51,528 nucleotides of DNA from an uncultured Actinomycetes bacterium (GTDB lineage Bacteria > Actinomycetota > Actinomycetes > Nanopelagicales > Nanopelagicaceae). The stretch lies in assembly GCA_903898555.1 (NCBI GenBank), contig CAIUFY010000064.1, positions 1 to 51,528 on the forward strand, in the 5' to 3' direction. This document shows, one piece after another, positions 10,086 through 51,528 of this stretch (positions are counted from its first letter, which is position 1; the number at the start of each line of letters is the position of its first letter). The notes under the pieces were generated by a model. The model saw only the letters and a program-made list of their open reading frames with translations. It was not told the DNA's origin and searched no databases. Made by a program: the position numbers and the translations under genes.

Positions 10086-13000
10086 ATGGCAGATAAGTTC
10101 TTTGTAACCGCAGTCATCGTCACCCACGATGGCGCAAGATGGTTACCTCAAGTTATTGCCGCAATCGGTTTTCAATCTCGAAAAGTTGAGCGCATTGTCG
10201 CCGTCGATACTGGATCTTTAGATAACTCAGTAAAACTTATTAAGGCCTCTGGTATTCCCTGCTTAGTAGAACAGCGCGACATGGGTTATGGCGATGCAGT
10301 TGAACATGCATTGGAACTAACTCCAGCTGTTGATGAAAATGAATGGATTTGGTTAATCCATGATGATGTTGCGCCTGACAAAGATGCGCTCGCGCGATTG
10401 CTTGCAGCAGTTGAAGATCGCCCTCAAGTTGCAATAGCCGGTCCTAAACTTCGAGGTTGGTATGACCGTGATCATTTGCTTGAGGTTGGAGTATCTATTG
10501 CTTCCAACGGTGCGCGATGGACCGGACTTGAACGTCGCGAGCAGGATCAAGGACAACACGATGGGGTTCGTGAAGTACTAGCAGTGAGCACTGCGGCCTC
10601 AATAATTCGAAGAAGTGTTTATGAAGAACTAGGTGGGCTTGATACAAACTTGGCACTCTTTCGCGATGACGTTGATTTAGGTTGGCGCGCACATGTAGCC
10701 GGACATTCTGTCATCGCTGTTCCAGATGCCATCGCCTATCACGCGGAAGCTTCATCCTCCGAGCGGAGAGCTGTCGACGTATCTGAAGCATTCCTGCACC
10801 GCCCACTCATGTTGGATCGCCGCAATGCGGCTTACGTGCTTTTAGTGAATTCATCTTTCTGGGCTTTGCCTTGGATTTCACTTCAACTCTTAAGTTCGGG
10901 AATCACGCGCGCCGTAATTAATTTGCTCGCAAAGCTTCCAGGTTATGCCGGCGATGAAATTGCAGCCGTTGCACTTCTGCTCGTTAACCCAAAAGAGATT
11001 TTCCAAGCACGTCGATATCGCAAGAAAAAGCGCTTGTTGTCCTCACGAATCATTCGAAAATTTATTCCGCCTCGATCTTCACAATTGCGAATGACAATTG
11101 AGCGAGCAGCAAGCACAATTTCGAGCGCAATTCGGCCGAGCGAATACGAGGACAGCTCTGGAATTGCTCACTCGTATTCAGATATTGGGGTTATCACTGA
11201 AAGCTTTGACGACCCGGAGTTAGTTGTCGTCAAAGAAGTTCCACTGTGGAAAATTATTGGTAAGAATCCACAGTTCATTCTCTTCTTTGGAATTACCGTC
11301 ATTTCAATTCTTGCAGCGAGAAATCGTCTCGGGGAGTTGTCTGGCGGAGCTCTTGCAATTGCTCCACGAAGCGGTCTTGCTTTGCTTGGTCAATACGCGC
11401 AGTCTTGGCACATAGTTGGCATGGGCTCAGCTGCAACTACGCCACCTTGGGTTCCGTTGTTGGGGCTTGCGAGTGTGGTGACAGGTTTTAATCTGCCACT
11501 TTTCATAACCCTTCTCTTTACTTTTACGCCTGTTCTAGCCTTCTACATATTTTTTAGAGTCCTAACAAGACTTGGCTCGTCAAAGAGATACGCCCTGATT
11601 GGCGCAGGAATTTATGCGTTTTCTCCAGTGCTGTGGGCATCTATAAATCAAGGACGGCTTGGAACAATTGCAATTATTTTGATTGCTCCGTCTCTTTATT
11701 TTATTTCCCCATTTACTCGCGATAACGAGAGAGCAAGTTGGCGACGTATTTTTGCAATTTCATTGTTAATAGGAATTTTCTGTGCTTTTAATCCCGTGAT
11801 TTTATTAGGTTGGTTATTTCTTCAAGGAGCACGTTTTACGGTCAACCTTTACGAACTTCGCCATCATTACCGAGAGCTAGGAATTCAAAAGCTTCTTTTC
11901 TCGCCAGAAGCAGAACCTATAAAGCGCCGCTTTGCGCTTCTTGTTACGCCATGGCTCATAACAGCGCCTTGGTCAGCTTCGATGATTTTGCACCCAACTC
12001 AATTCTTTCTTGAAGCTGGGATTCCTGTTCTTTCAGGAAGTCGGTGGTCTGAGTTTCTTGCAAATCCCGGAGGCGCAGGTTCCCCTCCACTCTGGCTCAT
12101 ATCCCCAGTGCTGCTATTTGCATTAGCAGCCTTTACGATCGACAAATTGCGCACATCGAGTTTGATGGCTACGTCAGTCATTGCAGTGGCTATTGCGCTT
12201 AGTTCTTTTACATTGCAAGGTCATGGAAGTTCATCAAATATTTGGACTGGGCCCATCATTGCTATAGCAACGGCACTACTTGTTCCAGGAGTGTTGTTGT
12301 ATGCAGAAGAATTCATTCCAAAGTTGCGAGAAATTCCTCTAGGAAAGCGTCACTTGGTCACTGGTTTTATTTCTGTAATAACTGCACTTTCGTTGATAGG
12401 AACTCCTATTTGGGCCATATCTGGCGGAGCACAATCATTGGTGCGGGCAAATCAAAGCCAAATTGTTCCAGCATTCGTTTCGGCTCTTGCAGATACTCCT
12501 GCTAGACCAAAAACAATAGTTATAAATACAATCAATGGCCAAGTAATGTATGAAATATCGCGGGGAACCGACGTGCAACTCGGTGGCGCGGATGTTTCGG
12601 TAGCCCCTCCTCGTGAAATCGTATTGGCGATGAATGATTTAGTTACCGGATCGGGAATTGAGTCGGCAAAGACTTTTGGGCATTTTGGGATTCAATACAT
12701 ATTTTTAAAAACACTTAGCAATACTTCCCTGATCAGAATTATTGACGGAAGCGGGGGCTTCACTCGCATGTCATCAACTGCTAACGGAATTGTATGGAAA
12801 GTGGTTGGAGCCTCACCTCGTGTTCTCTTTATCGGCAACGACAAATCGACCCAAACGATTGCATCTACAGACTTCAGCGCAGAAGCGGATGTGCCGCAAG
12901 GTGGCATGGTTGTTATTGCTGAGAAGTATGATCAAGATTGGCGCCTTCTTCTTGACGGGCAAAGAGTTCCTCTTCAGCATGCCGCAAACGGACTTCCAGT

Positions 13001-13160
13001 CTTTACGATTGCACATGCAGGGCGTGTAACAGTTCTTCATGATGGGACGCTTCACCGCACACTCTTGTCACTTCAACTCATCATTGTTCTGGCTGTCACG
13101 GTCTTGGCGCTGCCTGCTGGTAGGCGCCGACGCGAAGTCCCGATAGAAGAGTTGGTCTAG
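10086..13160 (+). CDS. Family-2 glycosyltransferase fused to a large polytopic membrane domain
   Basis: The N-terminal GT-A domain reads VTAVIVTHDG...VDTGSLDNS...WLIHDDVAPD...AASIIRRSVYEELGGLD...FRDDVDLGWR. More than ten hydrophobic segments follow, then a C-terminal extracytoplasmic region and a terminal TM. 1024 aa. Confidence 0.8.
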   Translation: MADKFFVTAVIVTHDGARWLPQVIAAIGFQSRKVERIVAVDTGSLDNSVKLIKASGIPCLVEQRDMGYGDAVEHALELTPAVDENEWIWLIHDDVAPDKDALARLLAAVEDRPQVAIAGPKLRGWYDRDHLLEVGVSIASNGARWTGLERREQDQGQHDGVREVLAVSTAASIIRRSVYEELGGLDTNLALFRDDVDLGWRAHVAGHSVIAVPDAIAYHAEASSSERRAVDVSEAFLHRPLMLDRRNAAYVLLVNSSFWALPWISLQLLSSGITRAVINLLAKLPGYAGDEIAAVALLLVNPKEIFQARRYRKKKRLLSSRIIRKFIPPRSSQLRMTIERAASTISSAIRPSEYEDSSGIAHSYSDIGVITESFDDPELVVVKEVPLWKIIGKNPQFILFFGITVISILAARNRLGELSGGALAIAPRSGLALLGQYAQSWHIVGMGSAATTPPWVPLLGLASVVTGFNLPLFITLLFTFTPVLAFYIFFRVLTRLGSSKRYALIGAGIYAFSPVLWASINQGRLGTIAIILIAPSLYFISPFTRDNERASWRRIFAISLLIGIFCAFNPVILLGWLFLQGARFTVNLYELRHHYRELGIQKLLFSPEAEPIKRRFALLVTPWLITAPWSASMILHPTQFFLEAGIPVLSGSRWSEFLANPGGAGSPPLWLISPVLLFALAAFTIDKLRTSSLMATSVIAVAIALSSFTLQGHGSSSNIWTGPIIAIATALLVPGVLLYAEEFIPKLREIPLGKRHLVTGFISVITALSLIGTPIWAISGGAQSLVRANQSQIVPAFVSALADTPARPKTIVINTINGQVMYEISRGTDVQLGGADVSVAPPREIVLAMNDLVTGSGIESAKTFGHFGIQYIFLKTLSNTSLIRIIDGSGGFTRMSSTANGIVWKVVGASPRVLFIGNDKSTQTIASTDFSAEADVPQGGMVVIAEKYDQDWRLLLDGQRVPLQHAANGLPVFTIAHAGRVTVLHDGTLHRTLLSLQLIIVLAVTVLALPAGRRRREVPIEELV

Positions 13161-42294: not shown

Positions 42295-43295
42295 TTGATA
42301 GCTTGCGGACCGTCACCACAGTTGAGACTCACACAGAAGGCATGCCAACGCGTGTTGTGACCTCTGGTGTTGGTGACATCCCTGGCAAAACGATGTTCGA
42401 AAAGCGCCTGTATTTCATGAAGAATTTGGATTACCTACGCGAATGGTTGATGTTTGAACCTCGAGGTCATAGCGCAATGAGTGGTGCGATACTTCAAAAG
42501 CCGACCCGTCCCGATGCTGATTGGGGAGTTGTCTACATTGAGGTTTCAGGGTGTCTTCCAATGTGTGGGCACGGAACAATTGGTGTTGCCACAGCGTTAG
42601 TTGAAAAGAAAATGGTGGAGGTCGTTGAGCCAATAACGACAATTCGCTTGGATACGCCGGCAGGGTTAGTTGTCGTAGATGTAAAAGTTAAGGATGGCAA
42701 GGCTGAGAATGTCACCATTATTAACGTTCCTTCATTTTCCTATGCTCTAGATCAAGTAGTTAATGTTCCGGGTCTCGGGGAATTGAAATATGACATGGCC
42801 TATGGTGGAAATTTCTACGCAATCGTCCCAATCGAACGAGTCGGTATTGAATTTAAACGCGAGAATGGTCAAAAACTTCTTGACCTTGGCCTGCTAATTT
42901 GTGATGCAATAAATGAACAAAATCGGCCGGTACATCCAGAAAATCCAGATATTGCCATCTGTCACCATATTGATTTCATCGCACCTGGTGGTAATTCACT
43001 TCATTGGAAGAATGCGATGGCTATTCATCCAGGTTGGTTCGATCGTTCGCCATGTGGAACAGGAACAAGTGCGCGCCTTGCTCAGATGGTTGCTCGTGGT
43101 GAATTTAAAGAGGGTGATGTACTCATAAATGAGTCGTGGATTGGATCGCACTTTGAAGGAAGAATTGCAGAGCGGACAAAAGTTGGAAATTTCGATGCAG
43201 TCATTCCACTAATCACAGGGCGTGCCTGGGTTATGGGCGAAGCAACGTGGCTATTGGATCCAACAGATCCATTTCCAAATGGATTTATTGTTTAG
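42291..43295 (+). CDS. Proline racemase-family enzyme, Cys/Cys type (4-hydroxyproline 2-epimerase)
   Basis: EPRGHSAMSGA. The first catalytic Cys is in LPMCGHGTIG and the second in DRSPCGTGTSAR. Having both Cys argues for an epimerase or racemase rather than a dehydratase subtype. Confidence 0.85.
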   Translation: MIDSLRTVTTVETHTEGMPTRVVTSGVGDIPGKTMFEKRLYFMKNLDYLREWLMFEPRGHSAMSGAILQKPTRPDADWGVVYIEVSGCLPMCGHGTIGVATALVEKKMVEVVEPITTIRLDTPAGLVVVDVKVKDGKAENVTIINVPSFSYALDQVVNVPGLGELKYDMAYGGNFYAIVPIERVGIEFKRENGQKLLDLGLLICDAINEQNRPVHPENPDIAICHHIDFIAPGGNSLHWKNAMAIHPGWFDRSPCGTGTSARLAQMVARGEFKEGDVLINESWIGSHFEGRIAERTKVGNFDAVIPLITGRAWVMGEATWLLDPTDPFPNGFIV

Positions 43296-44781
43296 TACGA
43301 ATTCCATTTACTAATCTCTCCAAGCTCAATGGATTTGAGTCCTTGAGTCCATCTGGAAGAAAAGCGTCAGGCATTCCTTGATATGAAACCGGGCGCATAA
43401 AGCGATAAATCGCATCTGTTCCGACCGAAGTTGTATGCGAGGAAGAGGAAGGCCACTGTCCGCCATGTTGCATCGCAGCAGTGACAGAAACTCCAGTAGG
43501 GAATGCGTTCCAAATTACACGACCAGCTTTTTCGGCGAGAATCGCTAGAAGCCCTTTCACATCATCATTTTCAGTTCCATGAATAGTCGCAGTGAGCTGA
43601 CCTTCAAGGGAAGAAGCTATCTCTTCAAATTTCGATTCTTCAGCGATAGCAATCACTGAAGTCGGCCCGAAATGTTCTTCAAGAAGCTCTGGATTCGCCG
43701 CGACGGTCTGCCATTCGGCGATGAAGAAGGTCGGCGTGACTGCCAATCCCGCATCCGCGGTGTTAGCGCTTATTGCCTTTACTGACCCCAACTTAGTTAG
43801 CGTTGAGATTGTTGACGAATAACGATCTGCAATTCCTTTATTGAGCAGCGGGCCAACGGTCAGAGTGCTTAGATATTTTTCTACCTCTGCCAAGAATACT
43901 TCTGCGTGAGATTTAGGAACAACAAAGAATCCAGGTTTCGTGCAGAACTGGCCAGACCCCATAAGGGCAGAATCAATTGCACCCTTAACAAGCGCTTCAT
44001 TTCGCTCGGCTATTGCAGATGGTGTGACAAATACAGGATTAATTGCGCCCATCTCTGCAAAGACTGGAATAGGCACTTCGCGTTTAGCTGTCAGTTCCAT
44101 AAGCAACTTACCAACTGCGCCAGAACCAGTGAACCCTACGGCTGTAATTTTTGGATGCTCAGCAAGCCAATGGGTTATCTGAGGATCATTTCCTTCGACA
44201 AGTGAGAAAAGTTCCTTCGGCTGGCCCGAATCTGCAATTCCCTTTTGAATGGCGGCAAAAACTGCTCTTGAGGTGTTTGGGTGAGAAGGGTGCGCCTTTA
44301 GAACAACGGCGCAACCGGCAGCAAGCGCACTTGCAGAGTCTCCACCAGCGGTCGAGAAAGCCAGTGGAAAGTTGCTTGCAGCAAAAATAGCTACCACTCG
44401 GAGCGGCTGATTTATTTTGCGAATATCAGGGCGTGGTCCCATTCCGTAAGCAGGATCGGCGCGATCAATCTTTGGATCCAAGAAGGCGCCTGAAGCGACT
44501 AATTCTGCGAATGTATTGATTTGAAAAACTGTGCGAGTGAGTTCGCCGTTAATGCGAGCCTCTGGAAGGCCAGATTCTTGCATTGCGAGGGGGACAATCT
44601 TCGCCCGGTCAGATTCGATTGCCAATGAGATATTTCGCAGTAATTGAGCGCGCTCGGCTGGCGAGAGCAGGGGAGCGTTGGCTGCTTCAATTGCGGCGGC
44701 AACTTCAGATTGTGAAGCGTTCTGGATCTCTGGTCCGAATTCTTCGGCCGTATGAGGGTTAACTGCGCGAAAAGATGTCAT
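43285..44781 (-). CDS. NAD(P)+ aldehyde dehydrogenase, probably alpha-ketoglutarate semialdehyde dehydrogenase
   Basis: ALDH superfamily: FTGSGAVG, the catalytic-Glu context FAEMGAINP, and the catalytic-Cys context SGQFCTKPG. Convergent with the epimerase gene, overlapping it by 11 nt. The substrate is inferred from context. Confidence 0.75.
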   Translation of the reverse strand: MTSFRAVNPHTAEEFGPEIQNASQSEVAAAIEAANAPLLSPAERAQLLRNISLAIESDRAKIVPLAMQESGLPEARINGELTRTVFQINTFAELVASGAFLDPKIDRADPAYGMGPRPDIRKINQPLRVVAIFAASNFPLAFSTAGGDSASALAAGCAVVLKAHPSHPNTSRAVFAAIQKGIADSGQPKELFSLVEGNDPQITHWLAEHPKITAVGFTGSGAVGKLLMELTAKREVPIPVFAEMGAINPVFVTPSAIAERNEALVKGAIDSALMGSGQFCTKPGFFVVPKSHAEVFLAEVEKYLSTLTVGPLLNKGIADRYSSTISTLTKLGSVKAISANTADAGLAVTPTFFIAEWQTVAANPELLEEHFGPTSVIAIAEESKFEEIASSLEGQLTATIHGTENDDVKGLLAILAEKAGRVIWNAFPTGVSVTAAMQHGGQWPSSSSHTTSVGTDAIYRFMRPVSYQGMPDAFLPDGLKDSNPLSLERLVNGIRTKQ

Positions 44782-44798
44782 GCGCAGAATCTAACAGG

Positions 44799-45374
44799 TC
44801 AGCCAGAGGTACTGGTTGCAGTCCTTACGTTGGCACGCGTAACAGTTACGGATATTGCATCGGAGATATTTCTATTGCCAGGGGCTCCAGCCGTGGTGGA
44901 GTGATATTGGCACTGGACTGAAATCGTGGCTAGCGGCGCCAAAGTAAAGGTCACTGCCGCTGAATTCGTTGAGGCGTTTGTATTTGTCAGCATATTTGTA
45001 AGAACTCCGGTGTTGCAGGTTCCAGTAGCACTCCACGTTCCTGCCACCGTACCACTCACCCGGCAGTAATTAAGAAGAACGGTGTATGCATTTGTACCAC
45101 TTGTCGTTGTGGTTGTCTGTCCTAAAGTGAAGGAAAGAGTTTGTAAAGTGCCCGTATTGGTAATTGTGAAGTAAGAACCTTTTGCAGCCGCCGTATCTCG
45201 AATAACCGGATTAACGGTGGTGACTGAGGGAACAACTTTCCAGGAACCTGAGCCGATCAACTGTGGAATTGAATTAGTTGCCGTGCCAACATTTGTTGCA
45301 TTAGCAAAAGCAAGGCCGAAGCAGTTGAGTATTACGACTACAACTGCTGCGGCCTTCTTTGTTCTCTTCGACAT
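44799..45374 (-). CDS. Secreted Thr/Ser/Asn-rich protein, divergent paralogue of the upstream TasA-like protein
   Basis: Signal peptide MSKRTKKAAAVVVVILNCFGLAFA|NAT. The mature N-terminus TATNSIPQLIGSGSW parallels ATNVTPQVIQSGTL of the upstream protein. There is a Cys-X17-Cys pair (YCRVSG...GTCNTG). No LPXTG motif and no C-terminal anchor. Confidence 0.6.
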   Translation of the reverse strand: MSKRTKKAAAVVVVILNCFGLAFANATNVGTATNSIPQLIGSGSWKVVPSVTTVNPVIRDTAAAKGSYFTITNTGTLQTLSFTLGQTTTTTSGTNAYTVLLNYCRVSGTVAGTWSATGTCNTGVLTNMLTNTNASTNSAAVTFTLAPLATISVQCQYHSTTAGAPGNRNISDAISVTVTRANVRTATSTSG

Positions 45375-45388
45375 GGCTACTTAACTAA

Positions 45389-46078
45389 TTAGCCGTTCGT
45401 TACTGAGGCATTGCGTTGGGTTGTACGAATCTTCCAGTTAATGCTTGCAGAAAGTCCCTGAATAGTTCCGCCAGGTAGCGTTCCATTTGTCACTGTTTCA
45501 GCAATAGATGCTGGAAGAGTGAGTGTGAATTTCAAGTAGGTAGTCGTAGAAGCTGGCACAGTGCCTGTAAACAATGTGAGTTCAACTCCTCCACCTGTTG
45601 TTGTATTCATTGTGGAAAGCGCTGTGTTTGACGCTGTGGTCGCTGTAGTTGTGCCTGAACAGGTTCCTGCAGGCATTGCCCATGCTACGGAACACTGAGT
45701 GACACTTACCGTTAATCCTTTTGATGCGCTGGTTGTCAGCAGCGTTGAGGCAGTCGCGGTGTCGTTAATAGACAAGTAGAAATTCTGCGCAGGCATTGTT
45801 CCGGTTGTCACACCAACGGCAAAGTTCAGCGTATCTCCGGGTGCCATTGCTGAAACGGTCGAAGTAAAACCACTAGATCCAGCATTCGCTGCGGTAATCA
45901 ACGACAACGTTCCTGACTGAATAACCTGAGGCGTTACATTTGTCGCAACGGCATCTAAGTTTGCGGAAGCAGCAGTAGACGCCACTGTGATTCCAACGGT
46001 GCCAACTACGGCGACAATTGTAATTTGCGCAACCGTTCTGGCGAAAAGATTCGTTGAGGTCATGAGGGACTTAAGCAT
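45389..46078 (-). CDS. Secreted TasA/camelysin-like protein (candidate fibre subunit)
   Basis: The signal peptide ends TAASA|NL. Three motifs align with B. subtilis TasA: VIQSGTLSLITAAN (TasA TFASGTLDLSAKEN), MAPGDTLNF (LKPGDKLTK) and TIQGLSASINWKIRTTQRN (KYQGNSIKLQFSFEATQWN). There is a Cys-X13-Cys pair. The start is taken at ATG 46078, which overlaps the peptidase stop (ATGCTTAA); ATG 46099 and ATG 46063 are also possible. Confidence 0.65.
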   Translation of the reverse strand: MLKSLMTSTNLFARTVAQITIVAVVGTVGITVASTAASANLDAVATNVTPQVIQSGTLSLITAANAGSSGFTSTVSAMAPGDTLNFAVGVTTGTMPAQNFYLSINDTATASTLLTTSASKGLTVSVTQCSVAWAMPAGTCSGTTTATTASNTALSTMNTTTGGGVELTLFTGTVPASTTTYLKFTLTLPASIAETVTNGTLPGGTIQGLSASINWKIRTTQRNASVTNG

Positions 46079-46736
46079 TTTCTCTCTTTTCTGCTTCATA
46101 TAGGTGGGGGGAAGTGATGGCTTCTTTGTGCTTCTTATCTTCTTTGCGGCGCTTTACGAGGATATTTGACACGATGATTACGTTGAAGATCACAAGGACG
46201 AAGAGTCCAATGAGTTTTCCACGCGTAGAACTAAGAGCACTTACGACATAACCAAGATTTGGGATTGTCTTGACTACCTTTCGAACCGGGGAGTTAAGCC
46301 CAATATCAACTGGCTTATCAGCAACAGGGTTGCTATCTCCCTTTGTTGTAATGGTTAGGGCAGTGGTTGTGGTGCTAAGTGATTGAATTCTGTGTGATTG
46401 GAGCGTCCAGTTCTCTGGATTAACTAGCATTACAACGTCATTTGGTTGCAAAGTGGAAGCTGTGACAACCTTTGCAACAATCATGTCGCCTGGGTTAATC
46501 GTGGGGCGCATGCTTCCGGTCGTAACGGTATGAATTGATATCCCAAAGTAAGAGGACATAACTGCCGGCCCAACAAGTGCAACCGATACGCTGATCACGA
46601 AAGCAATGTTTAAGACTCTTGCCCATCGTTGACGAGCTAGCGTTCCGTTGTCGCGTCTATCTGCAATCGTTCCTACGCGCTGACGGCGTTCAACGAACTC
46701 GTTTGTCGCAGCGTCTATAGGACGTTGATTTTTCAT
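46071..46736 (-). CDS. Signal peptidase I, archaeal/ER (SipW) type
   Basis: TTGSMRPTINPGD (nucleophile Ser box), LQSHRI (His box of Ser/His-type S26 peptidases), TKGDSNPVAD (GDN box). An N-terminal TM plus a C-terminal TM with a basic tail, as in SipW. Confidence 0.8.
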   Translation of the reverse strand: MKNQRPIDAATNEFVERRQRVGTIADRRDNGTLARQRWARVLNIAFVISVSVALVGPAVMSSYFGISIHTVTTGSMRPTINPGDMIVAKVVTASTLQPNDVVMLVNPENWTLQSHRIQSLSTTTTALTITTKGDSNPVADKPVDIGLNSPVRKVVKTIPNLGYVVSALSSTRGKLIGLFVLVIFNVIIVSNILVKRRKEDKKHKEAITSPHLYEAEKRENA

Positions 46737-46781
46737 TGGATAAACGTACGGTCTAACCTCAAGCGCGACACGAGAGTTCTT

Positions 46782-46796
46782 GGGGGCAATCCCCCC
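46782..46796 (-). other. Short GC hairpin between the regulator gene and the peptidase gene
   Basis: GGGGG-caat-CCCCC(C) on the + strand, which reads GGGGGG-auug-CCCCC on the transcript. No U-tract follows. Confidence 0.3.
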
Positions 46797-46799
46797 GTG

Positions 46800-46817
46800 G
46801 TTACTTGCGAGTTACTT
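46800..46817 (-). promoter_or_regulatory. Direct repeat GTTACTT-N4-GTTACTT (11-bp register) upstream of the peptidase operon
   Basis: GTTACTT occurs at 46800-46806 and 46811-46817 (AAGTAAC on the coding strand). This is 64-81 nt upstream of ATG 46736 and just downstream of the LuxR-type gene stop. Confidence 0.3.
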
Positions 46818-46825
46818 TGTAAATT

Positions 46826-47497
46826 TTAAATGAAGGACATCGCGCGCAGATACTTCATCGCAGCTGTCACTCGACGATTTGTAAGCTCTGACGCTGGTTC
46901 TACATCGAGCAAACTAGACGCAGCTGCGATTGTTCGCTCAACTGCTTTTGCTGAAATCCCACACGCTTTGCCAATTGCAGCGTTGCTCATGCCAGCTGCC
47001 ATCAGACGCATAACTCGGTGTTGTTGTGGGGAAAGCAGACCTTGGTAGTTTGCTTCAGTTAGAGCTTCTTCAAGCAAAGATGAGTCCAATTGAGCTTTTC
47101 CTTGATAGGCAGCTTCTAACTCAGCTAAGACAAGCTGAGGTGATCGGGTTGGCTTATTTAACCAATAGCAATTGTTAAAGAGAGCAGCAACCAGACCTTC
47201 CTTTGTTAATACAGGATTTTCCCGCTCAGACATAAACACAACGGGAATAGTTGGAAATGTCTTTCGTAACTCGAGTGCGGAAACGAGTGCATCGGTCCGA
47301 CGCAAAGAGTCCATATCAATCAAGATGAGATCGGCCTCAAACTTTGTTGCCTTTTCAAGGTAATTATCCGTCGCAACAACCATCGCGCTTACTTCAAATC
47401 CCGGCGCGGTTTCAAAACCCTTTGCAATGAATGAACCCATTCCAGCGCGGAACTGGTTCTCTAGGATCAGGATCTTCTTAAGCATTTTCTTATCCAT
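46826..47497 (-). CDS. Orphan NarL/LuxR-family response regulator with degenerate acidic pocket
   Basis: Receiver: KILILENQ (the DD pair replaced by EN), DLILIDMD (Asp retained), VVFMS, YWLNKP (Lys retained). C-terminal LuxR HTH: LSPQQHRVMRLMAAGMSNAAIGKACGISAKAVERTI. Start at ATG 47497 or ATG 47485. Confidence 0.8.
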   Translation of the reverse strand: MDKKMLKKILILENQFRAGMGSFIAKGFETAPGFEVSAMVVATDNYLEKATKFEADLILIDMDSLRRTDALVSALELRKTFPTIPVVFMSERENPVLTKEGLVAALFNNCYWLNKPTRSPQLVLAELEAAYQGKAQLDSSLLEEALTEANYQGLLSPQQHRVMRLMAAGMSNAAIGKACGISAKAVERTIAAASSLLDVEPASELTNRRVTAAMKYLRAMSFI

Positions 47498-47507
47498 CCT
47501 CTCGTTC

Positions 47508-48182
47508 TCACGCTTCCTTTCTATCATTCCTCGAAAGTCTTAGGTATTCAAGGACCACGAGCATTCTGAGGCTCTTTTCGTTGGAATGTGGCTCAATACC
47601 AAGCGCTTTAGCTATGAGAGAGATATGACGTTCAATGGCTTTTATCGAGAGATCGCACCTTCCGGCAATTGCCTTATTGCTAAGGCCATCGGCAAGGTAT
47701 TGGACAATTGTTAGCTGGACAGAGTTGAGCCCTCCAAAGGAATCTTCAAGCCCCTGCAAATCCTGCATGATGTCGTCTGGCAGCGAGACGCTGCCCCTAA
47801 TGGCGCTTCCTACACTTTCAAGGAAGGTGTCACCGTTATCAACACTTGGATTGAGCCAATAAGCCGAACTTGCAATAGGAGTTAACCGATTAGCAAAACT
47901 AAATTGTGGCAAATTTTTTCTCGCCGTGAGAATAAACGGTAGAAGTGGCGCAATTTGGCGCAAGTTATTTCGAATGTCCAGAGCATGACTTGGCTTCACC
48001 GAATCAATATCAATAATTATTGCGCCAGGCCAAATCAAGCGGTACGCCTGGATAGCATCATCTTCAGGTGCAAATTTTAAATACTGCCTACTTCTTACAT
48101 CCGGTGCGTATGTCGCGATTAAGCCATCGATATACGTCGGTGAAATTGGGTTGGCAATAACAAGCAATAAATTATTCTCCAT
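47508..48182 (-). CDS. Orphan LuxR-family regulator with pseudo-receiver domain
   Basis: Receiver-like: LLLVIANP (no acidic pair), AIIIDID, FILTA, YWLNPS (conserved Lys missing). LuxR HTH: LNSVQLTIVQYLADGLSNKAIAGRCDLSIKAIERHI. GGAGGG lies 4 nt upstream of ATG 48182. It is a paralogue of the downstream gene. Confidence 0.75.
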   Translation of the reverse strand: MENNLLLVIANPISPTYIDGLIATYAPDVRSRQYLKFAPEDDAIQAYRLIWPGAIIIDIDSVKPSHALDIRNNLRQIAPLLPFILTARKNLPQFSFANRLTPIASSAYWLNPSVDNGDTFLESVGSAIRGSVSLPDDIMQDLQGLEDSFGGLNSVQLTIVQYLADGLSNKAIAGRCDLSIKAIERHISLIAKALGIEPHSNEKSLRMLVVLEYLRLSRNDRKEA

Positions 48183-48199
48183 ACTACCCTCCGCTAGTA

Positions 48200-48234
48200 T
48201 TTAGATAATCTGTCATGGCAAATAATTATCTAAA
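48200..48234. promoter_or_regulatory. Perfect 10-bp inverted repeat in the regulator promoter region
   Basis: TTTAGATAAT (48200-48209), a 15-nt spacer, then ATTATCTAAA (48225-48234). It lies 18-52 nt upstream of the LuxR-type gene start and contains TANNNT-like hexamers. Confidence 0.4.
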
Positions 48235-48258
48235 CCCTCATTGCACGGGGGAATATTT

Positions 48259-48273
48259 GGGGGTGTATCCCCC
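48259..48273 (-). other. Short GC hairpin after the EAL gene
   Basis: GGGGG-tgtat-CCCCC, 12 nt downstream of the stop at 48286. A second G5 run at 48247-48251 allows alternative pairing. There is no clean U-tract. Confidence 0.3.
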
Positions 48274-48285
48274 TAAGTTAATTAA

Positions 48286-50562
48286 TTACGCGTGGAGAGA
48301 TTGGGAATTCTTAAAATCTCTAACCCAACCCCAGAAGTTGACCTCTGGAAGTGGCGGCGAGTACAAGAAGCCTTGAACTCTTGTGATTCCTGAATCTACG
48401 AGGAACTTCTCTACCTCAACAGACTCAACCCCTTCAGCCACAACTCTCAGCTTCAAATTATCGGCCAACTGTTTTATATCAAGGATAAGTTGACGATCCA
48501 TGCTCGTTCCAGCCCCAGGTATCAAGAAGGACCTATCAATCTTAAGAACGCTAATTGGCAAACTATTAACCTGTGAAAGGTTTGAATAACCAGTACCAAA
48601 ATCATCAATCGCAATGACAAAATTACTTGCTTTCAACTTACGCAATTGCTGAAGTGCAATATCGCCATCCGTGAGTGAGTGTTCAGTGATCTCTATGGAG
48701 ACATCGGTGGCGTCAACATTGAGTTTTTGGACCGATTCCATTAATTTGTCGGCAAAGTCGCTTCGACGAATTTGGGAGGCTTCCACATTTATTCCGACTC
48801 TAAAGCTGTCTAAGCTCAATTCTTCCTGAAAGAGCCTCGCATTTGCTCTGAAGCGAAGAGCACTTTCAATAATCCAGTCGCCAAGTTCAATTTCAAGGTC
48901 GTGATCGCTAACTTTGGAAAGGAATTCATTTGGAAGCAAAACCCCATAACCAGGTCGATTCCAACGAATAAGCGCTTCACCACCCATTACTTGATTCGTG
49001 CTTAATTCGATAACCGGCTGAAAATAAAGTTCAAATTCATTTAATTTAAGCGCTTGGCGAATAGCGAACTCTTCGGCTAGTGATTCGACATATTCTTGGC
49101 CTTGCACTTCTGAATAGATTGCAAAACCTGCACGAATTTGTCTATTTGCAATGTTGAGGGCGATTGCACCGTGGTGTATCAATTCTGATGGATTGAACTC
49201 TGCAGGTGCGTACACAACCAAGCCGATGGTAAATGTTAAATTCAATTCAATATCACTGTGATGAGTAGTGAACTGCATATCTGATTGAAGTGCCAGGGCC
49301 TTGGCTCGTGCTTGAGCTTCATTTGCTACGGGGCTGATAAAGACAAACTCATCAGAATTGAGCCGAGCGACCAAATCCTCACTTGAACTCAGCTTATTCA
49401 TTCTCGATGCAATCTCGGTCATAACTGAATCGCCAAACTCAAAACCCATTGAATCGTTTATTCGATGAAATCTGTCTACATCAATAAAGAGTGCCGCAAG
49501 CATTTTCTCGCTAGTGCCAGCTTGATTTGAAAGAGCGATGGACAACCCTCGCTCGTTCAAGAATCCTGTGAGGAAATCATGGCTGGCGCGATATTCAGCT
49601 TCCACAAATAGTCTCAGTCTGGACTGATGTTGTTTTATTGCATCCGCAAATCGCGCTCGGACTAGCTTCGATGCTATTTCTTCTAGCCCCGCGTCAACGG
49701 GAAATTCAATTTTGTATGAATCACCAGAGGCGCTAACCCGTAAGGCGGCGAGAGACAATTCTTTTTGCAATCTCTTTTCAAATAAGTTAGCAAAATCGGA
49801 GCTAGTGAGTGCAGTCAAATGCATTTCTGTAATCCAGCTCTGGAAGCGGTCCATTGCCCTTGATATCTCAAGCATCTGGGTGGCGCTGTTGAGTTTAAGT
49901 TGTTCCTCTTGAAGGATAAATTTCGCTTTTCTGAATGCAATTGCCAGATCGCGCACAAGCCAAACTAGGAGAATTAGCCCCGCCAGAATGGTAATTAGCA
50001 AAATTCCGCTTTGATAAAATTCCGAACGCGTTCGATTTTGAACTACTTTATTTACTTGCTTCAAGCTCTCCTCTTGAATTGCCTTACTCATACGTCTAGT
50101 TTCGGTTAAGAATAAATCATAATTTGGTCTTAGTTTGTTAAACGCAGAAGTACGCCCTGACAACGGTGTTGTGGAGTTGGCGATTATGAACTTATCAATT
50201 TCTTCAAGTTTCGCTTTATAGGAATTTGTCATTGCATCATACGTTGGATTTCCGTTAACCAACTTAACTTGGAGACGTTGCCCAAGAAGTGCTCGAGAAA
50301 TTTCAACATCTCGAATAACTACCTCGCCACGTACCCAATCTTCAATTATGAGCGCTAAATTGAAACTTTCTCGTTGAGAGTAAGCAAGGGATGCGGCATC
50401 ATTTGATTCAGCAAGGATAGACAATTTTTCAACTTGATGGGGTGTAGAAGAGTAGACAGACCATCCAGCCAGAGATCCAATTCCGATTGTTGCAACGATG
50501 AGTAGCGCAACTTGGCCAACCCTAATCTTTAAAAAGGAGGCACTTCGGATTCGATCAATCAT
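48286..50562 (-). CDS. Membrane sensor with degenerate GGDEF and intact EAL domain (predicted c-di-GMP phosphodiesterase)
   Basis: Two TM segments (VALLIVATIGIGSLAGW; ILLITILAGLILLVWLV) flank a roughly 150-aa external domain. The GGDEF-like domain reads RLNSDEF (GG changed to NS), and the RxxD site reads SSED. The EAL domain has EALIRW, INVE, EITEH, DDFGTGYS, KIDRSF, AEGVES and QGF. Confidence 0.85.
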   Translation of the reverse strand: MIDRIRSASFLKIRVGQVALLIVATIGIGSLAGWSVYSSTPHQVEKLSILAESNDAASLAYSQRESFNLALIIEDWVRGEVVIRDVEISRALLGQRLQVKLVNGNPTYDAMTNSYKAKLEEIDKFIIANSTTPLSGRTSAFNKLRPNYDLFLTETRRMSKAIQEESLKQVNKVVQNRTRSEFYQSGILLITILAGLILLVWLVRDLAIAFRKAKFILQEEQLKLNSATQMLEISRAMDRFQSWITEMHLTALTSSDFANLFEKRLQKELSLAALRVSASGDSYKIEFPVDAGLEEIASKLVRARFADAIKQHQSRLRLFVEAEYRASHDFLTGFLNERGLSIALSNQAGTSEKMLAALFIDVDRFHRINDSMGFEFGDSVMTEIASRMNKLSSSEDLVARLNSDEFVFISPVANEAQARAKALALQSDMQFTTHHSDIELNLTFTIGLVVYAPAEFNPSELIHHGAIALNIANRQIRAGFAIYSEVQGQEYVESLAEEFAIRQALKLNEFELYFQPVIELSTNQVMGGEALIRWNRPGYGVLLPNEFLSKVSDHDLEIELGDWIIESALRFRANARLFQEELSLDSFRVGINVEASQIRRSDFADKLMESVQKLNVDATDVSIEITEHSLTDGDIALQQLRKLKASNFVIAIDDFGTGYSNLSQVNSLPISVLKIDRSFLIPGAGTSMDRQLILDIKQLADNLKLRVVAEGVESVEVEKFLVDSGITRVQGFLYSPPLPEVNFWGWVRDFKNSQSLHA

Positions 50563-50565
50563 TGA

Positions 50566-51096
50566 CTACGCGATCTCGACCGATCGCAAACTCCAGTTCC
50601 ATGCATCTAGGTTAGTGAACCATTTACTCGAAGTATTGAATACGAGGCGGATAGGGCCACCTGCGTCCATAGGAATTGGAGCGTTGTTCAGAGAAACGGC
50701 AAGCAAGGCTTGGTTATTGAAAAAATCCTTTGCAGTGGCTTTAAATGCATAATCATTTAGGGCCACGGTATTCAATGAAGCGTTTTGAGCAATTTTCAAT
50801 GAGTCGAAAAGACTCTTGAAATTCACGACTCCAAATGTCTGCTTGGCCTTTACGAATGGCTCCTGAATTGTGATTTGAGACGTTCCAAGATCTCTCAACT
50901 GTTTCATGGTGAAGTTTATGGTGCTGGCGCCTTTAATAGTTAGAACTATGTCGCTATCAGCAGGGGGAGAAACCTTAAAACCACTTCCGTAAGGGTTCTT
51001 GGATGCGGTTGGAGTTGGTGATGCTTTTGGTTGAGCAGCACCCCCGCACGCAGATAAGAGAAGCACAGCAAGCAACACAGGGATTATTCGTTTCAT
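50566..51096 (-). CDS. Lipoprotein with sulfite-oxidase/YedY-like (molybdopterin-domain-like) sequence pattern, no Moco cysteine
   Basis: Lipobox LLLSAC|GG. LTIKGAS..TINFTMKQLRDLG...FGVVNFKSLF...ALLAVSLNNAPIPMDAGGPIRLVF follows the Oxidored_molyb pattern, but the Moco-binding Cys position is not conserved. ATG 51096 lies 4 nt after the upstream TGA and is preceded by GAGGAA. Confidence 0.55.
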   Translation of the reverse strand: MKRIIPVLLAVLLLSACGGAAQPKASPTPTASKNPYGSGFKVSPPADSDIVLTIKGASTINFTMKQLRDLGTSQITIQEPFVKAKQTFGVVNFKSLFDSLKIAQNASLNTVALNDYAFKATAKDFFNNQALLAVSLNNAPIPMDAGGPIRLVFNTSSKWFTNLDAWNWSLRSVEIA

Positions 51097-51100
51097 CTTG

Positions 51101-51528
51101 TCAGCTTTCCTCTTCATTGTTTAGATAGAGAATACTTGCAAATTTCTCCAAGTATTCTCCGTATTGCTTGGCATATTCGGCAGGAAGAATTGTAGGAATT
51201 CCAATTTCGGCTGAGAGCGAAAGAGCGGCTCTATCAGCTAGGACTGGCTCATCGCTTCTGTCCCAATCAATTGAAGAAGAAGATCGAATCAAAAACGTTG
51301 GTCGTAGCTCTTCGATGAGCTGGACTTCAAATGGTTTATCAAAGAGGCTTCCAAGAGCGATTGTGGCGTTGCCATGCCCAATAATTTCTCTTGCGATGGG
51401 AGTTCCATCAAGAGTTCGAGAATCAAGATTAACTACGCTCACCACTTTAAATTTCTTGCTTACAAGCTCAGTGATTGAATCAACAAGAGACAAGGTGTTT
51501 GCTCGATCAGAGCGGCTTGTTGCTGCTA
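51101..51528 (-). CDS. Hypothetical protein (5' end outside window)
   Basis: The frame is open to the window edge, upstream of TTG 51493. The tail is acidic (LNNEEES). I recognise no family. It is tightly linked to the lipoprotein gene. Confidence 0.45.
   Translation of the reverse strand, partial: AATSRSDRANTLSLVDSITELVSKKFKVVSVVNLDSRTLDGTPIAREIIGHGNATIALGSLFDKPFEVQLIEELRPTFLIRSSSSIDWDRSDEPVLADRAALSLSAEIGIPTILPAEYAKQYGEYLEKFASILYLNNEEES

Follow-up and report, generated by a model that had tools for sequence, protein, structure and literature searches.

Does a freshwater actinobacterium, abundant and with a genome of ~1.3-1.6 Mb, carry a dedicated switch for making extracellular fibres? The question is raised by a tight run of minus-strand genes at positions 44799-51528 of a 51,528-nt stretch of DNA analysed as a whole (the window). 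The initial annotation described a self-contained nine-gene locus joining c-di-GMP sensing, LuxR-type regulators, a SipW-type peptidase and TasA-like fibre proteins. Inspection of the window's open reading frames gave eight genes filling the run; a count of nine would have to take in the aldehyde dehydrogenase at 43285-44781, part of the hydroxyproline genes. The window edge cuts the cyclase gene, so the locus is incomplete and not self-contained inside the window. Two sizeable gaps only were found, as described (46737-46825, 89 nt; 48183-48285, 103 nt), and the proposed gene functions held (EAL and GGDEF proteins, two GerE/LuxR regulators, an S26/SipW-type peptidase and a lipoprotein). We read the run as a conserved cluster on the chromosome that makes TasA-type extracellular fibres under certain conditions and is coupled to its own local c-di-GMP module, and give this reading a probability of roughly 55%. 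From the window edge, the gene order is cyclase, lipoprotein, phosphodiesterase, luxR-B, luxR-A, sipW, TasA-like and second TasA-like:

51101-51528, minus strand: 3' end of a diguanylate cyclase gene, the last 141 codons of a 729-aa gene, frame open to the edge
50566-51117, minus strand: PruR-like lipoprotein, 176-183 aa, lipobox LLSAC (Pfam Oxidored_molyb and lipoprotein signal)
48286-50562, minus strand: membrane c-di-GMP phosphodiesterase, 758 aa (Pfam EAL, E = 6.9e-56; GGDEF, E = 9.9e-28)
48183-48285, minus strand: intergenic region upstream of luxR-B, with palindrome GGGGGATACACCCCC at 48259-48273 and a -10-like AATTAT at ~48222-48227
47508-48182, minus strand: LuxR-B, 224-aa NarL/LuxR-type regulator with a degenerate receiver (Pfam GerE, E = 1.5e-6)
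46826-47527, minus strand: LuxR-A, 219-233-aa NarL/LuxR-type regulator with a degenerate receiver (Pfam GerE, E = 1.7e-7)
46737-46825, minus strand: sipW promoter region, with palindrome GGGGGGATTGCCCCC at 46782-46796 and a -10-like TACGTT at 46743-46748
46071-46736, minus strand: SipW-type (archaeal/ER-type) signal peptidase I, 221 aa, two transmembrane segments (TIGR02228)
45389-46099, minus strand: TasA-family secreted protein, 236 aa, presumed major fibre subunit (homologues and fold match)
44799-45374, minus strand: second, divergent TasA-like secreted protein, 191 aa (profile-profile comparison and synteny)

At the output end, the peptidase scored 58.3 bits against TIGR02228 (cut-off 51.85) and fell under the cut-off of the SipW equivalog (E = 1.3e-17). 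Its translation reads GSMRPT (Ser75), SHR (His115) and KGDSNPVAD, with hydrophobic segments at 37-68 and 170-197. A direct Pfam match was not found for the 236-aa protein; its 385 homologues (40-47% identity, E ~1e-25) include many with PF12389 or named 'TasA family protein'. Searching PDB folds with its AF2 model (pLDDT 75.6, N-terminal segment disordered) returned the TasA fibre 8AUR first (E = 1.2e-5) and the archaeal bundling pilus 7UEG third. Similarity to B. subtilis TasA is remote (profile E = 0.4 against 5OF1; TM-score 0.44 against 8AUR). Two Cys and an LxAxAxN segment that follows the signal peptide are invariant. The 191-aa protein matched nothing in Pfam or NCBIfam and has only 11 relatives among 1.8 billion representatives. 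Profile-profile comparison joined it to the TasA-like family (probability 97.1%, E = 5.7e-11), and syntenic orthologues follow the TasA gene in the related loci L007, L008, L012 and Pseudarthrobacter L011. It is presumed to be a minor, tip or nucleator subunit.

These proteins could instead be monomeric or surface-bound, for example a protease of the camelysin kind or part of an envelope or coat, and have no more than the fold and the dedicated peptidase in common with fibre subunits. The Pfam name is indeed Peptidase_M73 (camelysin), some homologues carry the name 'spore coat-associated protein N', and the likeness to proven fibre formers is distant. We regard a non-fibre role as very unlikely, given that the predicted mature protein starts with the invariant alternating LxAxAxN segment, which the monomer model leaves disordered, as expected of a donor strand. 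The leading structural matches, a fibre protomer and a pilus, also argue against it, as does the paralogous minor subunit, which parallels tasA/calY and tapA, where a minor subunit is encoded in the operon.

Among known systems, the Bacillus subtilis tapA-sipW-tasA and B. cereus sipW-tasA-calY operons likewise place an ER/archaeal-type peptidase beside a major and a minor TasA-family protein. The 236-aa protein is predicted to share with Bacillus TasA a jelly-roll protomer with a free N-terminal strand. Sequence likeness is remote, however (~10% identity in structural alignment), and the locus lacks the TapA-like protein of the B. subtilis operon. The host here is an actinobacterium, in which genes for c-di-GMP enzymes and for two atypical NarL/LuxR regulators lie alongside; the Bacillus tasA operon is under SinR/SinI/Spo0A control. 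Archaeal and bacterial TasA-superfamily loci (AbpA bundling pili, AbpX) share with the locus a TasA-like subunit accompanied by a TIGR02228-type peptidase and minor subunits, but the locus protein, unlike AbpX, groups with the TasA-proper cluster. The initial annotation listed SipW/TasA fibres for Firmicutes and archaea; in an actinobacterium such genes are no novelty, being already annotated in members of Actinomycetota such as Pseudarthrobacter and Acidimicrobiales. The sipW-tasA-tasA2 core is also found in Pseudarthrobacter, without the regulatory genes. TasA homologues in Actinomycetota and c-di-GMP enzymes near bacterial AbpX-like loci are reported in a preprint (bioRxiv 10.64898/2026.01.04.697558), which does not describe this regulator pair, palindrome or PruR-like input.

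The input end begins at the window edge. We rejected the ORF at 51101-51493 as a separate 130-aa gene; in near-identical contigs it belongs to a gene for a 729-aa GGDEF protein, of which it encodes the C-terminus. The full-length gene is present in L001 and L013-L017, at 97-100% identity over the common part. It encodes a GAF-like N-terminus (GAF_2 was matched in the L008 orthologue only), a GGDEF domain (Pfam E = 1.9e-38) and a C-terminal domain of ~210 aa for which a Pfam search gave no match. The RIGGDEF motif is intact and preceded by an RPVD I-site, and RPVD-x5-GGDEF is kept in five orthologues. A PilZ-containing, cellulose-synthase-like glycosyltransferase adjoins the cyclase gene in two relatives (L007 and L020), which fits a module for matrix control.

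The phosphodiesterase has two transmembrane segments (hydrophobic at 8-37 and 181-211) enclosing an extracytoplasmic loop of ~143 aa. In the remainder of the protein, a degenerate GGDEF domain (NSDEF) precedes an intact EAL domain. NSDEF or SSDEF replaces GGDEF in four of five full-length orthologues, and because of this degeneracy the enzyme is predicted to act as a phosphodiesterase only. All six EAL proteins examined carry EALxR, and most carry DDFGTG, E(I/V)TE and EGVE. The adjacent lipoprotein had been called a co-sensor; a more exact identity is a PruR-like pterin-binding protein. It scored 27.6 bits against Oxidored_molyb (cut-off 24), and its family profile retrieved four solved PruR structures first from the PDB (7KOS, E = 1.4e-8, then 7KOM, 7RKB and 7KP2). 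ALNDYA is invariant across the family and corresponds to N102/Y104, the pterin-contacting residues of PruR (PMC11194511). By sequence, it is a PruR homologue with a degenerate sulfite-oxidase (SUOX) pterin-binding fold; it probably binds a pterin and probably partners the phosphodiesterase outside the cytoplasm. Lipoprotein and membrane sensor part occur together in L007, L012, L020 and L023; in L008 the lipoprotein is absent and the EAL protein is soluble (271 aa).

This pair resembles PruR-DcpA, a pterin-responsive c-di-GMP switch of Agrobacterium tumefaciens (PMC11194511, PMC4488946). Both systems have a small secreted SUOX-fold protein without the Moco cysteine, its gene directly upstream of one for a two-transmembrane GGDEF-EAL protein with an outside loop of ~140 aa, and the pterin-contacting Asn and Tyr (ALNDY) are kept. 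The differences are several. PruR-DcpA is known in the literature only from Proteobacteria, whereas this host is a monoderm actinobacterium, and the free periplasmic PruR of Agrobacterium is replaced by a lipoprotein. The PW motif of PruR is PF here, and the WX7E motif of DcpA is absent. Unlike that of DcpA, the GGDEF domain is degenerate, resembling V. cholerae VC1934.

Between input and output lie the two regulators, which are 27% identical over 161 aa. In alignment, the LuxR-B receiver lacks the conserved acidic pocket and lysine (A-N replaces the DD pair, and there is no K at beta5). LuxR-A reached just 19 bits against Pfam Response_reg, under the cut-off. Its family is discrete (~100 clusters at E <= 1e-45, then a fall to 1e-10). 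Across 36 members KAVERTI and LSPQQHRVMRL are invariant, the DNA-recognition helix with them, and D71 and K125 are not conserved. The recognition-helix core KA(V/I)ER-I is common to both regulators. VpsT of Vibrio cholerae and CsgD of E. coli are comparable LuxR-type matrix regulators with atypical receivers; they too combine a receiver-like domain with a LuxR helix-turn-helix, have no cognate kinase and are associated with matrix genes and c-di-GMP enzymes. The locus differs in having two paralogous regulators in tandem and an 8-residue insertion in the helix-turn-helix, and DNA binding here is predicted. The LuxR-A model has a generic NarL-type fold, with VpsT at rank 24 among its fold matches. 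We looked in both proteins for the VpsT W[F/L/M][T/S]R motif and helix-6 extension and found neither, and recognised no c-di-GMP-binding motif.

Each gap contains, as first noted, a G5-loop-C5 inverted repeat (GGGGGGATTGCCCCC and GGGGGATACACCCCC). They are the only two occurrences of GGGGG-N3-7-CCCCC in the 51.5-kb window; shuffles expect 0.02, and 0/100 reached two. The repeat element assigned to each gap is also present, as a direct AAGTAAC repeat in gap 1 and a perfect 10-nt inverted repeat in gap 2 (TTTAGATAAT/ATTATCTAAA, 48200-48209/48225-48234), but is not conserved in L012 and L007. TACGTT lies at -12 to -7 relative to the sipW ATG, and no Shine-Dalgarno sequence precedes the gene, so its mRNA is probably leaderless. 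Upstream of sipW, a -10-like TANNNT hexamer (background rate 0.008 per position) and the first G of the run are 46-48 nt apart in 13/13 loci, including four of Nanopelagicaceae type. Upstream of luxR-B, TAGGGGG is kept in L012, L007, L008 and L021-L023, and here too an xANNNT hexamer keeps the offset, at 46-51 counted from the first G. The palindrome recurs upstream of the cyclase gene. Its stem bases are invariant across loci and its loops vary, so covariation cannot tell a DNA site from an RNA hairpin. We read it as a candidate activator site and not a terminator because the hexamer spacing is fixed and is shared by the Nanopelagicaceae-type loci, which carry the same regulator family. There the module follows luxR-A homologues with other genes downstream, which ties the element to the regulator family. 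The fixed distance to the -10-like hexamer likewise supports the earlier proposal that the regulators may act on the peptidase promoter.

A different account would make the elements RNA hairpins, U-tract-less terminators or attenuators that divide the cluster into three transcription units. Each element does lie just past a stop codon, the stem of the copy that precedes the cyclase gene reaches 9 bp and has a U-run nearby, and an invariant stem with variable loops suits a hairpin as well as a palindrome. We think it unlikely, since the stem is just 5 bp in the two gaps with no U-tract, the sipW gap folds no better than shuffles (z = -0.39), and occurrence nowhere else in 51.5 kb argues against the genome's usual terminator. 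Distance to the downstream hexamer is fixed within 2 nt in the 13 loci, whereas that from the upstream luxR-A stop codon ranges over 19-58 nt. Upstream of luxR-B in L007 and L008, moreover, the G-run keeps its position though the C-arm is 25-27 nt away. An Rfam search of the luxR-B upstream region gave no family match. What speaks against a palindromic activator site is the sipW upstream region of L008, which lacks the C-arm. The DNA-site reading has a parallel in Mycobacterium tuberculosis, where NarL-family DosR, a phosphorylated response regulator with a kinase, binds the G-rich 5-4-5 palindrome GGGAC-N4-GTCCC. The locus GGGGG-N4-CCCCC has the same 5+4+5 geometry and, again in an actinobacterium, a putative NarL/LuxR-type binder, but its half-site sequence differs.

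In the mechanism we propose, the cytoplasmic GAF-type cyclase with its I-site would make c-di-GMP, the membrane phosphodiesterase would degrade it, and the PruR-like, probably pterin-binding lipoprotein would read the phosphodiesterase's extracytoplasmic loop; the three would jointly set the local c-di-GMP level. LuxR-A and LuxR-B, independent of phosphorylation, would bind the palindrome as homo- or heterodimers and activate the sipW promoter, which is probably leaderless and in which the palindrome is centred near position -52. Autoregulation would come from the similar sites upstream of luxR-B and the cyclase gene. The signal could pass to the regulators by direct c-di-GMP binding or by contact with the cyclase or phosphodiesterase as 'trigger' enzymes, both being possible. 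SipW would then cleave the unusual signal peptides off both TasA-like proteins. The major subunit would polymerise extracellularly, its N-terminal LxAxAxN strand serving in donor-strand exchange, with the 191-aa paralogue as a minor, nucleating or capping subunit. The cluster thus suggests that 'free-floating' freshwater actinobacterial cells may switch on a sticky matrix.

The initial annotation named failure of co-conservation as its own refutation. We surveyed the neighbours of LuxR loci, counting only where the contig reaches, and they are kept wherever contigs do so. Every locus with an orthologue of the second LuxR (59-99% identity) has the paralogous LuxR, an upstream EAL gene and downstream SipW and TasA-like genes, and luxR-B is always directly upstream of luxR-A in the TasA-type loci found. 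The same order occurs in six lineages (the window with L013-L017, L012, L007, L018-L020, L021-L023 and L008), as identity falls from 99 to 59% for LuxR-A and to as little as 35-47% for TasA. LuxR-A is the cluster's most conserved protein: its identity is 86% in L007 (TasA 72%) and 63% in L008 (TasA 47%).

This survey bears on a further account, in which the cluster makes fibres but its regulators are blind to c-di-GMP. LuxR-A would then activate surface-structure genes generally in freshwater Actinomycetes, in response to some other cue or simply through its own abundance; the two c-di-GMP enzymes would belong to its regulon or act post-transcriptionally on export, assembly or a polysaccharide synthase. 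We hold this to be possible, if doubtful. In four Nanopelagicaceae-type loci, LuxR-A family members and the palindrome precede giant collagen-like proteins, not TasA, and adjoin an OmpR-type two-component system, and no gene for a GGDEF or EAL protein lies within 9 kb. LuxR-A therefore need not be a c-di-GMP receptor, and these loci, with the missing VpsT motif and extra helix, weaken the original claim that the LuxR proteins respond to c-di-GMP. The palindrome upstream of the cyclase gene and the PilZ-bearing glycosyltransferase in L007 and L020 also suit blind regulators. Against this, cyclase, phosphodiesterase and both regulators are contiguous in every TasA-type locus across deep divergence, which is hard to account for without a functional link. 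LuxR-B, moreover, occurs with c-di-GMP genes and could be the responsive partner.

No tRNA is present in the 51.5-kb window, in line with the initial annotation. A compositional check, which had been called for, found no clear anomaly. GC content is 0.450 in the locus and 0.465 in the remainder of the window, and the tetranucleotide distance of the locus falls inside the window's own range.

The 44799-51528 segment is densely filled with minus-strand open reading frames, interrupted by only two sizeable gaps (46737-46825 and 48183-48285). We count eight genes rather than the nine of the initial annotation; its two gaps were both recovered, each carrying a G5/C5 inverted repeat, at 46782-46796 and 48259-48273. 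The outermost reading frame stays open as far as the window edge, and in near-identical metagenome contigs it forms the end of a 729-aa GGDEF protein, hereafter the cyclase.

Genes of the cluster, in coordinate order
44799-45374, minus strand: second TasA-like protein, 191 aa
45389-46099, minus strand: TasA-like protein, 236 aa
46071-46736, minus strand: archaeal/ER-type signal peptidase I (SipW), 221 aa; TIGR02228 58.3 bits against a cut-off of 51.85, SipW model E 1.3e-17
46826-47527, minus strand: GerE/LuxR regulator LuxR-A, 233 aa; Response_reg match sub-threshold only
47508-48182, minus strand: GerE/LuxR regulator LuxR-B, 224 aa; GerE, without a Response_reg match
48286-50562, minus strand: GGDEF and EAL protein (the phosphodiesterase), 758 aa; domain search
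50566-51117, minus strand: lipoprotein, 183 aa; partial Oxidored_molyb match
51101-51493, minus strand: end of the cyclase gene

The complete order is visible in contigs L013-L017, which share 94-100% protein identity with the window over the locus. It runs from a rhodanese-like gene, directly before the cyclase gene, through a G5-N4-C5 hairpin, the cyclase (729 aa), the lipoprotein, the phosphodiesterase (758 aa), a gap, LuxR-B, LuxR-A, a second gap, SipW and the TasA-like proteins of 236 and 191 aa to an aldehyde dehydrogenase of the hydroxyproline cluster. The window also holds mtrB and secA and belongs to an uncultured freshwater population of the class Actinomycetes whose contigs reach 1.56 Mb. 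The aldehyde dehydrogenase gene (43285-44798) starts 17 nt past the stop codon of the 191-aa gene and shares its strand, a junction that recurs in loci L012 and L007. Because no terminator-like site lies between these two genes, read-through from the fibre operon into the aldehyde dehydrogenase is possible. Elsewhere in the window, upstream of phosphomannomutase and the mtrB-secA region, 10086-13160 encodes a 1024-aa protein with a weakly glycosyltransferase-like N-terminus (MftF-like, E 3.5e-11, far under the cut-off).

As the cluster's best-conserved protein (86% and 63% identical in L007 and L008, against 72% and 47% for TasA), LuxR-A served as the probe for related loci. The search yielded one species-representative genome (L012) and seven metagenome loci; L007 and L008 came from earlier look-ups. 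Throughout these loci (LuxR-A identity 59-99%), LuxR-B and an EAL protein precede LuxR-A, and SipW with one to three TasA-like genes follows it wherever the contig reaches. The co-conservation expected if the segment is a single locus, as initially proposed, is therefore found for LuxR-B, EAL, LuxR-A, SipW and TasA-like genes in all loci, contig permitting. L008 encodes a soluble EAL-only protein and lacks the lipoprotein; the membrane sensor part and the lipoprotein are both present in the other four loci with full-length orthologues. The surroundings of its cluster differ as well: at this most divergent TasA-type locus (L008:3848-4609, minus strand), a heliorhodopsin gene and a UbiA-family prenyltransferase gene adjoin the cluster, and the rhodanese-like gene lies on the opposite side relative to the genome of the window, a sign that the cluster was relocated or inverted. 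Another lineage (L021:2833-6113, L022:3335-5733 and L023:6872-9270) carries two or three TasA-like paralogues after sipW, with 35-41% identity to the window protein, in place of one major and one short paralogue.

In this population, LuxR-A variants turn up on roughly the same number of contigs as SecA or phosphomannomutase, and by these contig counts the cluster is apparently a core feature there. A mobile-island origin was rejected: the window contains no tRNA, the locus displays no clear compositional shift, and relatives at 81-83% aldehyde dehydrogenase identity share its flanks. The initial annotation had judged a mobile origin unsupported on the evidence of the window alone.

The signal peptidase exceeds the curated TIGR02228 cut-off, as does its Pseudarthrobacter counterpart (64.5 bits). 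Its translation contains GSMRPT (S75), SHR (H115) and GDSN...D, together with two hydrophobic segments that form membrane anchors; we take S75 and H115 to be the catalytic residues of a Ser-His (not Ser-Lys) peptidase. The sipW gene overlaps the start of the tasA-like gene, an arrangement kept in all related loci. The 236-aa protein has no direct Pfam match at E <= 0.1, and its kinship emerged from its 385 homologues, many of which, in Pseudarthrobacter and Acidimicrobiales among others, bear PF12389 or the name 'TasA family protein' (phmmer 1e-25 to 1e-28). TasA was also the top PDB profile match, over SGTLxL...PGD...N.G and QG...W...TQ, at an E value of only 0.4. An AF2 model (pLDDT 75.6; residues 24-50 under 50, a disordered N-terminal stretch) placed the TasA fibre protomer 8AUR first in Foldseek, at E 1.2e-5 and a TM-score of only 0.44, with the archaeal bundling pilus 7UEG third. 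The sequence comparisons point to detectable homology to the TasA family (PF12389 / Peptidase_M73). An LxAxAxN strand right after the signal peptide and two cysteines are invariant in the 236-aa family. The 191-aa family is small, with 11 representatives in 1.8 billion proteins, and is a divergent TasA-like paralogue, which hhalign aligns to the TasA-like family with 97.1% probability (E 5.7e-11). We propose that these proteins would assemble into fibres through donor-strand exchange. The 191-aa gene contains, in its signal-peptide region shortly past the start codon, a 25-nt inverted repeat (45303-45365; 80% complementary, spacer 13 nt).

The initial annotation named Firmicutes and archaea as the known bearers of SipW/TasA fibres; such proteins are already annotated in Actinomycetota, for instance in Pseudarthrobacter and Acidimicrobiales. 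Pseudarthrobacter possesses the sipW-tasA-tasA2 triad, with the regulatory genes absent, so an actinobacterial TasA-type operon is no novelty. A 2026 preprint reports TasA in Actinomycetota and c-di-GMP enzymes near some bacterial TasA-superfamily loci (bioRxiv 10.64898/2026.01.04.697558). At the Pseudarthrobacter locus, a 131-aa Hpt-domain (histidine phosphotransfer) protein follows the triad (L011:11320-11715) and an OmpR-type two-component system lies upstream at a distance, which suggests a different regulatory input onto the same output module.

Upstream of the regulators, the cluster encodes enzymes of c-di-GMP turnover. The cyclase carries RPVD-x5-GGDEF in five orthologues, comprising the active-site motif and the I-site (GG[D/E]EF and RxxD), and its N-terminus is GAF-like by orthology with the L008 protein. 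In the phosphodiesterase, two transmembrane segments (hydrophobic 8-37 and 181-211) flank a loop of ~143 aa, and the EAL domain contains EALxR, E(I/V)TE, DDFGTG and EGVE. All six EAL proteins examined keep EALxR, and most keep the remaining EAL motifs; the GGDEF motif is degenerate (NSDEF, as here, or SSDEF) in four of five full-length orthologues. From these motifs the locus is predicted to supply one c-di-GMP maker and one breaker. The cyclase N-terminus, its C-terminal ~210-220 aa and the phosphodiesterase outside loop gave no Pfam match, to degenerate EAL or any other known domain, even at E <= 10, and such a domain was rejected for all three. In L007 and L020, the cyclase gene has a divergently transcribed neighbour, a glycosyltransferase-2 gene that includes a PilZ domain (L007:342-2621 and L020:6-1994, both minus strand; 759 aa, cellulose-synthase-like, PilZ E 1.4e-6). 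This gene is absent from the window and from L013-L017, so we discarded it as a neighbour of the locus in the window's genome. The end of the cyclase gene contains, at 51128-51159, a perfect inverted repeat of 11 nt, GAGAATACTTG / CAAGTATTCTC, whose loop measures 10 nt; situated 10-40 nt upstream of the lipoprotein start codon, it may affect translational coupling.

The lipoprotein, previously labelled a co-sensor, can be placed more precisely. Pfam Oxidored_molyb is over its cut-off, and the best four PDB matches of the family profile are all PruR structures (7KOS E 1.4e-8, 7KOM 1.9e-8, 7RKB 3.9e-8 and 7KP2 4.6e-7). The sequence ALNDYA shows no variation among five orthologues and lines up with the ALNDYV of 7KOS, which holds the pterin contacts N102 and Y104 in A. 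tumefaciens. At the position of the PruR Pro-Trp motif there is an invariant Pro-Phe (EPFVK), with the aromatic residue kept and the cysteine absent. We therefore regard the lipoprotein as a PruR homologue with a SUOX fold and no Moco cysteine. PruR is a periplasmic SUOX-fold protein whose gene lies directly upstream of that for DcpA, a two-transmembrane GGDEF-EAL protein; tetrahydromonapterin-bound PruR shifts DcpA to c-di-GMP degradation, and attachment is limited (PMC11194511, PMC4488946). The present pair resembles PruR-DcpA in operon position (the lipoprotein gene is directly upstream of the 758-aa gene, 3 nt apart), in outside-loop length (~143 versus 138-150 aa) and in the pterin-contacting Asn and Tyr. 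It differs in having PF for PW, in being a lipoprotein and in its partner's lack of WX7E. We searched the outside loop for this DcpA-type motif and rejected it: no invariant W-X7-E occurs there, W34 is not conserved and has H at +8, and the invariant W76 has R at +8. Pterins, through putative binding to the lipoprotein, would be the outside cue of the cluster. PruR systems in the literature are described from Proteobacteria only, and a possible, testable extension of pterin-PruR signalling to monoderm bacteria follows.

The two regulators combine a receiver-like domain with a LuxR HTH. Foldseek matched the LuxR-A model best to VraR, LiaR, RcsB and NarL (E 3e-8 to 1e-6), and Pfam Response_reg scored 19 bits against a cut-off of 30. 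In LuxR-A the acidic pair is replaced by E23-N24, and neither D71 nor K125 is conserved among 36 family members (consensus WLNQP; N at position 71 in the L008 protein). LuxR-B degenerates further, with A-N for the acidic pair and no Lys. No histidine kinase gene occurs in the cluster at any TasA-type locus. The unconserved pocket and the missing kinase gene set both proteins apart from canonical NarL/FixJ response regulators, and we classify them as phosphorylation-independent NarL-type regulators. They share this property and their domain layout with VpsT, on which, along with CsgD, the initial annotation had modelled c-di-GMP control through the LuxR pair. That analogy fails at the ligand site: in an alignment with VpsT (3KLN), the W[F/L/M][T/S]R motif is replaced by AQLDSS in LuxR-A and VSLPDD in LuxR-B, and the 9-residue helix-6 extension is a gap in both. 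A VpsT-type c-di-GMP site was accordingly rejected. We propose that c-di-GMP may modulate the regulators directly or via the cyclase and phosphodiesterase. The LuxR-A family is sharply bounded, with ~100 clusters at E <= 1e-45 and the next matches at 1e-10, and its named members are freshwater Actinomycetes, Candidatus Nanopelagicaceae among them. The recognition helix of this family reads KAVERTI without variation, and a related helix, KAIERHI, is found in LuxR-B.

The G5-loop-C5 pattern occurs nowhere in the 51.5-kb window outside the two gaps, against 0.02 copies expected from shuffles, so the observation is real and non-random. The cyclase gene also has a palindrome before it, the third of the locus, which falls beyond the window edge. 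Before sipW, G5-6-N3-5-C3-5 is found in eight of nine loci, with the G arm alone in L008, and all nine have a TANNNT hexamer at a distance of 46-48 nt from the initial G (background 0.008 per position). The distance from the luxR-A stop codon to the element varies from 19 to 58 nt among loci. In the window, the hexamer is TACGTT at -12 to -7 of the sipW ATG, and no Shine-Dalgarno sequence precedes the gene. TANNNT at such spacing without a Shine-Dalgarno sequence is the arrangement of leaderless actinobacterial mRNAs. Before luxR-B, TAGGGGG is kept and xANNNT hexamers stand at the same offset. Searches of both gaps for a riboswitch or other known RNA returned no Rfam match at E <= 1, and their RNA folds were not clearly better than shuffles. 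The fixed, promoter-linked hexamer spacing, together with the Rfam and folding results, argues for an activator site and against a terminator. We read the element as a site for upstream activation with its centre near -52; the protein that would bind it is most likely LuxR-A, alone or together with LuxR-B. This putative 14-bp operator of a new phosphorylation-independent NarL-type regulator family is testable. Its stems are invariant, so covariation is uninformative on DNA versus RNA. The hairpins reported for each gap thus stand as non-random features. The accompanying repeats do not stand as conserved elements, as neither the AAGTAAC direct repeat nor the 10-nt inverted repeat is kept in L012 or L007.

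More distant relatives of LuxR-A accompany other cargo. In four Nanopelagicaceae-type loci (L024, L025, L027 and L028; LuxR-A identity 46-50%), a G5-N4-C4-5 palindrome with TANNNT at an offset of 46-48 stands just after luxR-A, and the next gene encodes a giant secreted Gly-X-Y (collagen-like) protein. The palindrome is unique within the locus in L024, L025 and L027 and has a second copy inside the luxR-A gene in L028. None of the four loci has a GGDEF or EAL gene within 9 kb. Because of them, it is a serious possibility, for LuxR-A itself, that the fibre stays and the regulators are uncoupled from c-di-GMP; this is the main rival to the coupled reading.

We tentatively put at roughly 0.3 the joint reading that couples them: LuxR-A and the palindrome promoter would constitute a 'surface-structure switch' found across the lineage of streamlined freshwater Actinomycetes, whose cargo can be exchanged (TasA fibres here, collagen-like proteins in Nanopelagicaceae/acI), and which is coupled here to a c-di-GMP circuit with a PruR-like pterin-binding lipoprotein sensor. 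If true, PruR-type pterin/c-di-GMP input would have its first example outside Proteobacteria, and some of the most abundant 'obligately planktonic' lake bacteria would conditionally build an extracellular protein matrix on an excreted redox-active metabolite. Streamlined freshwater Actinomycetes are seen as free-living plankton with minimal regulation. A regulated fibre cluster of conserved and apparently core status would open aggregation, attachment to particles or hosts, and defence against grazers or phages in lakes to genetic study. We know of no c-di-GMP link to TasA-type fibres established in Bacillus, and the possible route from c-di-GMP to such fibres is directly testable here.

The cluster comprises eight conserved genes with a TasA/SipW output, a cyclase/phosphodiesterase pair with a PruR-like partner, two NarL-type regulators and a promoter element. 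The original observation is thereby partly confirmed and its interpretation partly supported. All components come from known families; the wiring and the host are new, and no new kind of machine is involved. What merits follow-up is the combination of a PruR-like input, a c-di-GMP enzyme pair, two atypical regulators in tandem, a palindrome promoter and TasA output. That acI bacteria use the regulator-promoter cassette again, with collagen-like proteins, strengthens the case.

The Nanopelagicaceae-type loci have further features (L024:3156-10712, L025:9001-18183, L027:9001-13424 and L028:9001-18633). An OmpR-type two-component system and a methyltransferase precede LuxR-A, and the collagen-like proteins measure 970, 1197 and >2959 aa. 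Paired ~220-aa single-pass membrane proteins also follow in L024 and L025; no Pfam domains are on record for these or for the collagen-like proteins of the four loci. A 52%-identical LuxR-A homologue at L026:8099-14684 is divergent from a LuxR-B-like gene and has no c-di-GMP genes within 9 kb. Its G/C palindromes are imperfect only (for example, GAGGGTTAGCCCCC), and the locus encodes an SGNH hydrolase and then three secreted proteins of 228, 318 and 561 aa without known domains.
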